Shown here: piece after piece, positions 1,687-4,999 of the stretch
Layout: every line of letters begins with the position of its first letter
Numbering within the stretch: the stretch's first letter is position 1
Origin: Candidatus Levyibacteriota bacterium
GTDB lineage: Bacteria; Patescibacteriota; Microgenomatia; Levybacterales; UBA12049
Assembly (NCBI GenBank): GCA_963722305.1
Contig: CAVRKE010000002.1
Span: forward strand, 40,566 to 104,565
Length of the DNA: 64,000 nt
Reading direction: 5' to 3'
Notes under the pieces: model-generated
The model's database searches: none
Seen by the model: the letters and a program-made list of their open reading frames with translations, nothing else
Told to the model about the DNA's origin: nothing
Position numbers and translations under genes: made by a program

Positions 1687-1778
1687 TTTAGTCTTCTTAT
1701 CTCTTCTTATAAACCTCCATTAGATTCTTGAAATGAGCTAACAATGGTTCAAAATAAGGATTGCTGGCGGTACTCGTG

Positions 1779-2201
1779 CTATTCTCGAACCATATATTTG
1801 ACTAATTCCATTCCCGTTTTGACTTTTTCAAAACCAAATTTTTCGTAAAAAGAAATATTGGGAGGGTTTTCTTCCCAAGCGAATAATCCGATTGAAACAT
1901 ATCCCTTATCTTTTACTTTATCTATTAACATTTCCATAATTCTTGTTCCAATCCCCTTCCCCTGAAATTCAGGATGAACACAAATATCATAAAACATACA
2001 CATTACGCCATCTTCCATGATTCTTCCAAATCCCACCAGTGTATTTTGACTATAAGCGGTAACAATGTAGGTCGACTTTTCAAATATCTTTTGCCACTTT
2101 GCTTTATCTCTTTTCCAGCCTATCGCCTTAAATAATTCGTTAAGTTTCTCGATAGATACGCTTTCCGAATCGGAAAAAACTATATCATTTACTGCCGCCA
2201 T
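1779..2201 (-). CDS. GNAT family N-acetyltransferase
   Basis: Acetyl-CoA binding motif HPEFQGKGIGTRIMEMLIDKVKDKGY; about 140 aa, typical GNAT size. Confidence 0.85.
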   Translation of the reverse strand: MAAVNDIVFSDSESVSIEKLNELFKAIGWKRDKAKWQKIFEKSTYIVTAYSQNTLVGFGRIMEDGVMCMFYDICVHPEFQGKGIGTRIMEMLIDKVKDKGYVSIGLFAWEENPPNISFYEKFGFEKVKTGMELVKYMVRE

Positions 2202-2233
2202 ACTAATTCCATTATAGCAGTTTTTAACTAAAC

Positions 2234-2503
2234 CTTGACAAAAAACGCTTAAGAAGCTATCCTAAGAACGTTCTTTCGGGGTAATTGTGTAAGTCAAAAT
2301 CGGCGGTATACTCCGCGAGCCCAAAAGGCATGAGCTTTTGAAATTAAAGCAGCGACCGTCCTTCAATAAACTCAGGATGCTGAGCGAAGTCGAAGCATAT
2401 AGTCGGGACCGAGTCAAACTCGGCTGCGTGAAAGCAGAATAGAAAGAATTTTGAACGTTTTTAAGGCGTTCTTATTGCAATACCCCGAAGGGGGTATTTT
2501 TTT
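2234..2503 (+). promoter_or_regulatory. Promoter (TTGACA 2234-2239, 17-nt spacer, TATCCT 2257-2262) and ~235-nt structured leader ending in an intrinsic terminator (TACCCC-GAAG-GGGGTA + T7, 2481-2503) that also sequesters the SD-like GAAGGGGG; riboswitch/attenuator candidate of unknown class
   Basis: The terminator T-run abuts the ATG at 2504. Several internal hairpins (e.g. CCGAGT-CAAA-ACTCGG at 2409-2423). The downstream gene is an ECF-type S component, a gene class commonly under riboswitch control. Confidence 0.35.
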
Positions 2504-3085
2504 ATGAAAAAATTGACCACCCGCGAAATCGCTTTAGCTGCCGGCCTGGCTGCCATTTCGGCAGTTGTCCAATTAATTCACATCGGCTATCAATCACCGC
2601 AATTTGGGATGTGGATTGATTTTGTGGCAGTCACCTGGATTATCGGCATTTTCCTTTTTGGATCCCGCATGGCTTTTATCGTTTCTGTCGTCGGGACAAT
2701 TTTTATTGCTCTTTTTGCACCCGATACCTGGCTAGGCGCATCAATGAAATGGCTGGCAAGCTTCCCTGTTTGGTTTTTACTTGGAGTCTGGATTTTTAAA
2801 AAAGGCCAGGCTTTTGAGTATTATAAAAAATGGCAAAGGCTGCTTATTCCGCTTTTTATTGCCATTGTTATCCGCTGTTTGATTATTATTCCCCTGAACT
2901 ATTTCTACGCCATCCCGATTTGGACCGGCTTAAGTCCCACAAAAGCGATGGCGGTAATCCCCTGGCAAATAATCGCAGTCTTTAACATTATCCAAAGCTT
3001 CGTTGACGTCGGAGTAGCTTGGCTTTTGGTCTACAAATTTGGGCTAAACCGTTTTGCTCCTTTTAATCAGACAAAAAAAGACTGA
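2504..3085 (+). CDS. ECF-transporter substrate-specific (S) component-like membrane protein
   Basis: 193 aa, about 6 TM segments, N-terminus MKKLTTREIALAAGLAAISAV typical of S components. Directly followed by an ABC ATPase and a T-like protein. Confidence 0.45.
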   Translation: MKKLTTREIALAAGLAAISAVVQLIHIGYQSPQFGMWIDFVAVTWIIGIFLFGSRMAFIVSVVGTIFIALFAPDTWLGASMKWLASFPVWFLLGVWIFKKGQAFEYYKKWQRLLIPLFIAIVIRCLIIIPLNYFYAIPIWTGLSPTKAMAVIPWQIIAVFNIIQSFVDVGVAWLLVYKFGLNRFAPFNQTKKD

Positions 3086-3087
3086 AT

Positions 3088-3825
3088 ATGAAAAACGGAA
3101 TAATATTGCAGGATATTTCGGTAAGTTATCGGTCAGGGATTTCACAGCTTAAAAATATCTCCGTGCAAATTCCAAAAGGGACTTTTTTGGGCATTACGGG
3201 CGTAAACGGATCCGGAAAAACCACTTTCGCTCTACTTTTAAACGGACTTATCCCTCACGAAATACCGACGAAATTAAACGGAAATGTTTTTGTCGACGGT
3301 GTGAATACTAAGAAAAAACCGGTCGCTTATTTTGCCGATAAGGTTGGCATGCTTTTTCAGAACCCGGATTTTATGTTGTTTAACCTGACCGTTTTTGCTG
3401 AAATCGCTTTCGGACTTAGTAAGCAAACTGATATTGACAATAAAGTCTTCGAAGCTTTGGGAATGGTGGGTCTTAAGGGCTTTGAGAAACGCGATCCGCA
3501 AACCTTGTCTTTAGGCGAAAAGCAGAAGGTCTGCCTGGCAAGCGTCTTAGCCAGGGACTCTGAATATATCGTCCTTGATGAACCGGTGGCAATGCTTGAC
3601 TACAAAGGCGCAGTCAGTCTTTATGAACTGCTGATGAAACTGAATCGACACGGAAAAACGATTATTGTGATTGAGCATGATACGGATTTCTTACTTAAAT
3701 ATGCCAAACGGGTTGTAATTTTAGAACAGGGCGAAATAGTTTCTGCCGGAAAACCAACTTCCATTTTTTCACACAGAGAGCAATTGAAAAAATTAGGAAT
3801 CAAGATCCCCCAACCGATATTATGA
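3088..3825 (+). CDS. ABC transporter ATP-binding protein (ECF A component / CbiO-like)
   Basis: Walker A GVNGSGKTT, ABC signature LSLGEKQKV, Walker B IVLDEP, H-loop IEHD. Confidence 0.85.
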   Translation: MKNGIILQDISVSYRSGISQLKNISVQIPKGTFLGITGVNGSGKTTFALLLNGLIPHEIPTKLNGNVFVDGVNTKKKPVAYFADKVGMLFQNPDFMLFNLTVFAEIAFGLSKQTDIDNKVFEALGMVGLKGFEKRDPQTLSLGEKQKVCLASVLARDSEYIVLDEPVAMLDYKGAVSLYELLMKLNRHGKTIIVIEHDTDFLLKYAKRVVILEQGEIVSAGKPTSIFSHREQLKKLGIKIPQPIL

Positions 3826-4385
3826 AAAAATCCGTTACTGTTTTAAAAATTATTTTGCTTTTGGCAGTTAATTTTTTTGTGTTTTTGACAAAAAATATTT
3901 TTTTACTGTCCGGAATTTTTTTACTTATCACAATCATGCTCCTACCAACAAAGTACTCACTAATCAGTAGGCTAAAAGTAATTCTGCCAATTTGTTTGAT
4001 AATTTTGCTCTCGCAAATGATTTTTAATTCTGCCTTTTCTTTGGAACAACGTTTTATCTTTGGCTATCTTAGCTCAATACGTATTATTATTGTCAGCCTT
4101 TCGGTATTTGTGTTTTTGGCAACGACTGCGCTTTCCGAAATTGTCGCTGTCTTTAATTTTTTACCAAAAGATTGGCTATTGCTACTCACTATTACCTGCT
4201 ATCTAATTCCGGCGACATTAAGCGAAGTAGAACATATCCGCGTCGTCCAAAAATCGCGGACTGCTTATAAAAACCGCTGGAATGTTATCAAAAATATTGC
4301 TTCTTTGTTTGTACCTCTACTGCACCGAATTTTTAATCGGGCCGAGGTAATCTCCCTTACTATTGTTTCCAGAACTATTGAATAA
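3822..4385 (+). CDS. Small membrane protein, putative ECF T component (CbiQ-like, short)
   Basis: Start overlaps the ATPase stop by 4 nt (operonic). Multi-TM. Conserved-looking cytoplasmic stretch EHIRVVQKSRTAYKNRW. Only 187 aa, which is short for CbiQ. Confidence 0.4.
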   Translation: MKKSVTVLKIILLLAVNFFVFLTKNIFLLSGIFLLITIMLLPTKYSLISRLKVILPICLIILLSQMIFNSAFSLEQRFIFGYLSSIRIIIVSLSVFVFLATTALSEIVAVFNFLPKDWLLLLTITCYLIPATLSEVEHIRVVQKSRTAYKNRWNVIKNIASLFVPLLHRIFNRAEVISLTIVSRTIE

Positions 4386-4390
4386 CCCAC

Positions 4391-4999
4391 TTACGGATAC
4401 TGGTAGCAAAAGATGGCAAAGCGAAAGTCAGCAAACAGCAACCACCAAGCGGATACTATTATCAAAAGTGTCAGGATAACCCATCCCCATTTTTGCGCGT
4501 TCATGAATTTTCCAATCCCCAGCAGTGAAATCAAGCCAAAGACAATATAGAACAAGCTGATTCTTAGCAGAAAAGGAATTCGGGAGTAAAAGAAAAGCTC
4601 TGTGAACGGCAATACCAAGAACAATCCGCACAACACCCATTGCCACATTTTCTTAACCTTAGAGGCGAAAAAGTAATAGCCGGCGGCTAAGATTCCAAAA
4701 CCGCCGATAAACGGAAACAGTTCGCCCTGAAAAACAAAATCCCAAAAACGGAAATAGGTTTTAATAATTAACAGCAAGCCATCAACCAACTTGTTGTGGA
4801 AAAAACGGATTAGCAGAAATGGTAAGCCTGAATCTTGGCTCATTTCTCCCTGCAGTTGCAAAACCAGCGGCCCGAAATTGACATGCAAAAGCTCCTGGAA
4901 ATTCTTGCAATGGATAAGCCAGAAAATTAAATTTGCCAGTTCAACTGCAGCCGCCATTAATAAAAATAATAGCGTGATTTTTTTCTTCATAGTTTCCAA
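4391..4999 (-). CDS. Hypothetical integral membrane protein
   Basis: 202 aa, several hydrophobic helices, no recognisable motif. Confidence 0.4.
   Translation of the reverse strand: METMKKKITLLFLLMAAAVELANLIFWLIHCKNFQELLHVNFGPLVLQLQGEMSQDSGLPFLLIRFFHNKLVDGLLLIIKTYFRFWDFVFQGELFPFIGGFGILAAGYYFFASKVKKMWQWVLCGLFLVLPFTELFFYSRIPFLLRISLFYIVFGLISLLGIGKFMNAQKWGWVILTLLIIVSAWWLLFADFRFAIFCYQYP

Follow-up and report, generated by a model that had tools for sequence, protein, structure and literature searches.

A probable FMN riboswitch of unusual architecture upstream of a dedicated ECF importer operon in Microgenomates (Patescibacteria)

In the window, the 64-kb stretch of DNA analysed here, an ECF transporter operon is preceded by a long structured leader, which raises the question of what kind of regulatory RNA this leader contains. 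The sequence-only reading of the locus had proposed a riboswitch with an OFF-state layout and of an unrecognised class, which it could not match to the FMN riboswitch. The layout found support in the analyses presented here, but the class did not: the leader (Table 1) is very probably an FMN riboswitch (RFN element, RF00050) controlling a dedicated riboflavin ECF importer, with the gene order S-A-T, in Microgenomates (Patescibacteria).

Table 1. Features of the leader and of the downstream operon, in window coordinates; aptamer residues are paired with the F. nucleatum numbering
Feature	Position	Strand	Basis or remark
Promoter, sigma-70-type, TTGACA-17-TATCCT	2235-2263	+	–35 at 2235-2240, –10 at 2258-2263
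P1 5′ strand GUUCUUUC, also 5′ part of the antiterminator strand	2270-2277	+	8 of 8 pairs with 2442-2449
J1/2 GGGGUAA	2278-2284	+	GGGG nearly invariant across relatives
P2 hairpin UUG/UGUAAGU/CAA	2285-2297	+	Rfam alignment
J2/3 CG, P3 GCGG/CCGC, J3/4 GA	2301-2318	+	P3 = 2303-2306/2313-2316
P4 hairpin GCC/GGC and J4/5 AUGA	2319-2333	+	Rfam alignment, clade covariation
P5 hairpin GCUUU/UGAAAUU/AAAGC and J5/6 AGCGA	2334-2355	+	Rfam alignment
P6 CCG (2356-2358)/CGG (2404-2406), with inserted extension	2356-2406	+	Homology to extended P6s
P6 extension hairpin	2359-2403	+	Tip CUCAG-GAUG-CUGAG at 2371-2384; loop remnant UAUAGU at 2398-2403
J6/1: G2407, A2408, two inserted hairpins, AAUA	2407-2441	+	Hairpins at 2409-2423 and 2424-2437; AAUA at 2438-2441
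P1 3′ strand GAAAGAAU	2442-2449	+	Identical to the relatives' P1 3′ strand (GAAAGAAU/A)
Residues G10, G11 (J1/2)	G2279, G2280		Phosphate-contacting
Residues G32 (J2/3), A48 (J3/4)	G2302, A2318		
Residues U61, G62 (J4/5)	U2331, G2332		
Residues G84, A85 (J5/6)	G2354, A2355		
Residues G98, A99 (J6/1)	G2407, A2408		A99 is the flavin-pairing adenine
Spacer hairpin, aptamer to terminator	2453-2471	+	–5.6 kcal/mol, z = –4.1
Intrinsic terminator and U-run	2479-2503	+	Stem 2479-2486/2491-2498, loop GAAG
ECF S component, RibU-like	2504-3085	+	PF12822, 34.8 bits, above the cut-off of 30.7
ECF ATPase (A component)	3088-3825	+	PF00005; TIGR04520 ECF_ATPase_1, 204.6 bits, below the cut-off of 315
ECF T component, CbiQ family, 187 aa	3822-4385	+	PF02361 and TIGR02454, weak matches

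Assignment of the leader to the FMN class

At gathering thresholds, Rfam returned no match over the whole 64-kb window, a result that speaks for a riboswitch of an undescribed class. However, when the threshold was relaxed, the scan of positions 2150-2560 revealed one clear, full-length match, to RF00050 (model positions 1-138, 39 bits, E = 1.5e-7), whose alignment covers positions 2268-2391. The score lies below the curated gathering cut-off of RF00050, which is 66.2 bits, because the window copy carries two insertions that the RF00050 model cannot bridge.

The orthologous leaders placed this match in context. Sixty genome loci of S-component homologues were gathered, and Rfam, run on 46 bacterial loci, detected a full-length FMN element directly 5′ of the S gene in 39 of them; 27 of these elements were at or above the curated cut-off, with scores of 67 to 102 bits, and the other 12 were below it, the window copy having the lowest score among all copies found. 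In the 12 archaeal loci, no FMN aptamer was detected by Rfam or by the clade model. This clade covariance model was built without the window and matched 84 leaders, corresponding to 73 distinct rows. When the FMN secondary structure was mapped onto the clade alignment of these 73 rows, 94.2% of the cells were paired and compensatory changes on both sides were found in 22 of the 29 pairs, values that none of 500 shuffles reached, and control structures slid by moving the partner 1 to 3 columns were only 38-47% paired.

The covariation extends to individual helices. P1 covaries in the clade, as do all five pairs of P5, and helices 3 and 4 are 100% paired in the clade alignment, with the CG of J2/3 pairing with 2353-2354. 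In P2, the UUG/CAA of the window is exchanged for GGG/CCC in relatives, an alternation that changes both sides of all three pairs. In the window itself, the aptamer spans approximately 2270-2449, all six helices P1-P6 can be drawn, and the unconstrained minimum free energy fold of 2262-2452 uses the P1 formed by 2270-2277 and 2442-2449.

The conserved and covarying structure that the sequence-only reading had proposed to seek in orthologous leaders was consequently found, and it is the structure of a known class, to which the window leader belongs on the grounds of sequence, structure and homology. The FMN element had escaped recognition by eye because two lineage-specific insertions split the 3′ third of the aptamer; P2 and P5 are also AU-rich. 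With the orthologous leaders passing the cut-off, the FMN-contacting nucleotides in place and the core sequence and structure conserved, the probability of an undescribed class has shrunk to almost nothing, and the lead to a new riboswitch class was removed.

The leader shares with the classic FMN riboswitches (B. subtilis ribD and ypaA (ribU); F. nucleatum impX, PDB 3F2Q) the six-helix junction P1-P6, the junction sequences CGGGG, AUCGGCGGUA, CCGCGAG, GA, GCGAC and GGGA, all eight FMN-contact bases, and both the site 5′ of a riboflavin transporter gene and a terminator-based OFF switch. It differs from them, besides its score of 39 bits against 66.2, in the AU-rich P2 and P5 (UUG/CAA and GCUUU/AAAGC), in an extension of about 45 nt inside the P6 loop, in two hairpins (29 nt) placed in the junction strand J6/1 after A99, and in an antiterminator that draws on the aptamer's 5′ edge, namely the P1 5′ strand and J1/2. 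An FMN riboswitch in front of a RibU-type transporter is a textbook arrangement, whereas the architecture, with its extended P6 and its two-hairpin insertion in J6/1, is unusual.

These observations bear on the annotation of reduced genomes, since curated covariance-model thresholds miss real FMN riboswitches of Patescibacteria when peripheral insertions split the aptamer. Twelve of the 39 orthologous elements and the window copy do not reach the cut-off, so that the number of riboswitches in these genomes is underestimated. No paper describing FMN riboswitches in Patescibacteria or, more broadly, in the candidate phyla radiation emerged from the literature search, which yielded one preprint that mentions both 'FMN riboswitch' and 'Patescibacteria'.

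Ligand pocket and inserted segments of the aptamer

In the FMN aptamer, the flavin is contacted by A48, A85 and A99 and the ribityl phosphate by G10, G11, G32, G62 and G84 (PMC6298564). The equivalents in the window were assigned from consensus position, a map that is consistent with the junction ranges of the solved F. nucleatum aptamer, such as residues 61-62 for J4/5 (PMC3201879), and all eight of them (G2279, G2280, G2302, A2318, G2332, G2354, A2355 and A2408) are conserved.

The composition of this pocket is informative about the ligand, which might in principle be riboflavin or another flavin, as in the rare specificity variants of Clostridioides difficile. The variant FMN riboswitches of subtypes 1 and 2 (Atilho, Perkins and Breaker 2019, PMC6298564) have their overall fold in common with the window aptamer, some of them, those of subtype 1, adjoin COG3601/RibU-family transporter genes as the window leader does, and Patescibacteria probably import riboflavin. 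However, such variants swap contact guanines for adenines, and it is with these G-to-A changes at the phosphate/ribityl contacts that subtypes 1 and 2 reject FMN (PMC6298564), whereas the five guanines of the window (G2279, G2280, G2302, G2332 and G2354) are all kept. The window leader is thus not a known specificity variant, and a preference for a flavin other than FMN appears highly improbable.

The 3′ third of the aptamer admits two alignments. Close relatives, with 79-87% protein identity, read GCGACCG-UACAGU-CGGGAUGAAA-GAAAGAAU and have compact aptamers. In the window, GCGACCG is followed by about 39 extra nt, by UAUAGUCGGGA (2398-2408), by two hairpins, by AAUA and finally by GAAAGAAU. 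The 11-mer UAnAGUCGGGA is kept in all relatives, and the 57 nt of positions 2352-2408 align without gaps with the extended P6 of three other leaders (L012, L013 and L107), 46 to 48 positions being identical. This gapless alignment indicates that the 'CAGGAUG' of the window caps an extended P6 hairpin and is not J6/1.

The Rfam alignment takes the opposite course and treats the aptamer as compact, with a P6 of CCG/CAG that contains a mismatch, GGAUGCU as J6/1 and GAGCGAAG (2382-2389) as the P1 3′ strand, so that 2392-2452 would become part of the expression platform. It was picked by both Rfam and the clade model (68.5 bits for the latter), and it retains the full GGAUG motif of J6/1; for the clade model, the compact choice was attributed to the penalty on long insertions. 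Nevertheless, it relies on the look-alike CAGGAUGCUGAGCGAAG (2373-2389), which leaves P1 with two mismatches and P6 with one, and in constrained folds it reached –30.2 kcal/mol against –46.6 kcal/mol for the aptamer with both insertions, that is, 16 kcal/mol worse. Moreover, it makes mere coincidences of the exact UAUAGUCGGGA at 2398-2408, of the perfect P1 partner at 2442-2449 and of the 57 nt that align without a gap with the extended P6 of L012 and L107. That the compact form is the working aptamer is consequently regarded as distinctly unlikely. Given that both models prefer it, the preferred reading, in which P6 is extended and J6/1 carries two hairpins, rests on homology, thermodynamics and analogy.

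With regard to the extension, insertions recur in the P6 loop of clade members. The extension in the window is weaker than that of L012 (fold z = –0.4). In seven other leaders, unrelated hairpins of 22-31 nt are inserted at this very point of the loop.

With regard to J6/1, the two inserted hairpins of the window fold at –11.6 kcal/mol (z = –3.3), and in six leaders (L008, L017, L034, L036, L098 and L108) the equivalent site, between GGGA(N) and a short purine-rich linker before the P1 3′ strand, is occupied by two hairpins whose sequences are unrelated. Rfam scores cover five of these seven J6/1-insertion leaders, L098 and L108 lying outside that scan, and all five scanned carriers (L008, L017, L034, L036 and the window) are below the cut-off. 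Variation in the FMN class usually takes the form of helix or loop extensions, for example an extended P3 (PMC6298564), and no account of an FMN aptamer with an insertion in one of its junction strands was found. U100, the residue next after A99, is bulged into solvent in the solved F. nucleatum structure (PMC3201879), which makes an insertion there sterically plausible; the window leader would in that case indicate that two hairpins can be accommodated in a junction strand of the FMN aptamer where U100 bulges out. It is also conceivable, though rather unlikely, that the two-hairpin insertion defines a distinct architectural subtype of the Microgenomates FMN riboswitch, comprising the window and at least six leaders. 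If real, such a subtype would be systematically missed by standard annotation, and the extra domain might tune folding kinetics or ligand preference beyond being merely tolerated.

The exact combination of insertions was found, by protein look-ups and a metagenome scan, only in the window genome and in an identical contig (L061). As this combination was seen in these two alone and their nearest relatives are compact, the inserted hairpins of the window have no covariation of their own. An origin of the inserted segments from a repeat or a mobile element was ruled out within the window, where they are single-copy, no second copy being present at up to three mismatches.

Expression platform and proposed switching mechanism

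The promoter TTGACA-17-TATCCT preserves 10 of 12 positions and is the top promoter-like match within 1700-4600. In eight related leaders, TTGACA is invariant and TATnnT is kept at the same spacing. From this position, transcription would start at approximately 2270, the first base of P1. No credible open reading frame was found on the + strand of 2264-2503, and the leader, of about 234 nt up to the ATG at 2504, folds at –73.2 kcal/mol, better than its shuffles (z = –2.8). The terminator, AAUACCCC-GAAG-GGGGUAUU (2479-2498), folds at –12.3 kcal/mol (z = –3.75), and its U-run adjoins the ATG. The sole Shine-Dalgarno-like purine run of the leader is GAAGGGGG (2487-2494). All these elements had been anticipated by the sequence-only reading, which described the promoter, a long structured non-coding leader and a GC-rich terminator with a U-tract running into the ATG. 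Its further claim, that the 3′ arm of the terminator is the only Shine-Dalgarno-like sequence, was also borne out, with the refinement that GAAGGGGG spans the loop as well as the 3′ arm.

Because the only Shine-Dalgarno-like run sits in the loop and 3′ arm of the terminator, the OFF state would also block translation. The U-run of the window and of its closest relatives leads directly into the ATG, and a separate Shine-Dalgarno sequence is lacking there. Four other leaders, L034 and L108 among them, have a canonical AAGGAGG or GGGAGG between the terminator and the start codon, and the presence of AAGGAGG 3′ of the terminator in some relatives indicates that the hairpin is a terminator and not merely a mask of the ribosome-binding site. 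Between the aptamer and the terminator, close relatives have a hairpin of different sequence in the place of the spacer hairpin of the window.

The fold of the full leader revealed a second, competing structure. Its minimum free energy state contains a long-range helix between 2271-2287, comprising the P1 5′ strand, J1/2 and the P2 5′ strand, and 2477-2493, comprising the 5′ arm of the terminator, its loop and the first G residues that follow. This is the candidate antiterminator, and since one of its strands is the aptamer's 5′ edge, the entire leader is enclosed by a single long-range helix. The duplex of 2270-2284 with 2480-2494 amounts to –20.3 kcal/mol, the strongest complementarity in the leader set. 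The antiterminator state was calculated at –72.5 kcal/mol and the state with both aptamer and terminator at –65.2 kcal/mol, an energy gap that could plausibly be bridged by a tightly binding, nanomolar ligand. Most of the Shine-Dalgarno-like GAAGGGGG also stays paired when the antiterminator forms.

The complementarity of antiterminator and terminator is conserved across the clade, as judged from the leader sequences. The top downstream partner of the aptamer 5′ edge is the 5′ arm and loop of a hairpin followed by a U-run in 51 of 68 distinct leaders, and in 59 of 67 the antiterminator duplex is more stable than all of the coding-sequence controls. Moreover, leaders in which J1/2 has CAGGG for CGGGG have CCCUG for CCCCG in the arm. 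Terminator-like hairpins elsewhere in the window are unrelated in sequence. Such conserved complementarity implies that FMN governs whether the terminator or the antiterminator forms.

According to the mechanism proposed here, the leader would bind FMN and switch as follows. FMN binding would lock P1 and J1/2 in the aptamer, which would allow the terminator at 2479-2498 to form, so that transcription would stop at the U-run before the ATG and the same hairpin would hide the sole Shine-Dalgarno-like sequence. In the absence of FMN, the aptamer 5′ edge (2271-2287) would instead pair with 2477-2493 to build the antiterminator, and the transporter genes would be transcribed. As the antiterminator is made of the ligand-contacting guanines of J1/2, FMN binding and antitermination would compete for the same bases.

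The state of the expression platform also helps to judge whether the leader is a decayed relic, in which the insertions have destroyed ligand binding and left a constitutive attenuator or an element regulated in some other way. The window copy scores lowest, its closest relatives lack the insertions and its P6 extension is weakened, all of which would fit decay. On the other hand, the eight ligand-contact positions and the six helices are intact, the insertions lie at sites where other members of the clade also have insertions, and the antiterminator-terminator complementarity is, as stated above, the strongest of the set. A relic is for these reasons considered very unlikely, and a functional FMN riboswitch is the preferred explanation.

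The transporter operon and its genomic surroundings

The three genes downstream of the leader correspond by their Pfam matches to an S component, an ABC ATPase and a CbiQ/EcfT-like T component, in agreement with the ECF transporter operon that had been read from the sequence. When the profile of the S family was compared with solved structures, the only match was to RibU of S. aureus (3P5N, 'Riboflavin uptake protein'), over nearly its full length (E = 1.2e-7), and several S homologues are labelled 'riboflavin transporter FmnP' by JGI. The S homologues come from Microgenomates genomes and metagenomes (Woesebacteria, Gottesmanbacteria, Roizmanbacteria and Levyibacteria), and the S-A-T gene order is common to the relatives. 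The RibU profile match and the conserved gene order together make riboflavin import the likely function of the operon, as far as protein similarity and gene order can indicate it.

Organisms of this kind are generally thought to be unable to make riboflavin. The arrangement fits organisms that control riboflavin import by their FMN pool.

The window S component has in common with S. aureus RibU (PDB 3P5N) the S-component fold family and the control by an FMN riboswitch; it is, however, very distant from it, and its gene is part of a dedicated S-A-T operon that contains only one ATPase gene. Both the A and the T component are divergent and score well under the NCBIfam equivalog cut-offs, and the T component is unusually short. 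RibU examples in Firmicutes are solitary S genes that use a shared EcfAA′T module.

Several features of the surrounding DNA and of the homologous loci were also recorded. Upstream of the leader, the window contains an open reading frame of 324 aa (712-1686, + strand) with an N-terminal winged-helix DNA-binding domain and weak C-terminal phosphoribosyltransferase-like matches, and the same gene is present upstream in the identical contig L061. Three of the loci (L035, L042 and L053) have no FMN riboswitch and carry one, three and four tRNA genes, respectively, in the approximately 1.4 kb 5′ of the S gene. In another locus, from a Microgenomates genome (L003, positions 5-136), a match to the SAM-I/IV riboswitch that narrowly misses its cut-off (38.5 against 41.1 bits) precedes the FMN element by about 1.2 kb.

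S-component homologues with 30-51% identity are encoded in the twelve archaeal loci (L043-L046, L052 and L054-L060), belonging to DPANN archaea (Aenigmatarchaeota and Micrarchaeota) and to one Bathyarchaeia record; these could reflect gene exchange between small-celled groups, in which the RNA switch was left behind. Finally, many records, among them L011, L012, L014, L015, L017 and other 'binchicken' and SRP entries, are titled 'uncultured Gammaproteobacteria' or 'Pseudomonadales' and carry a locus and riboswitch of Microgenomates type, so that these labels look unreliable.
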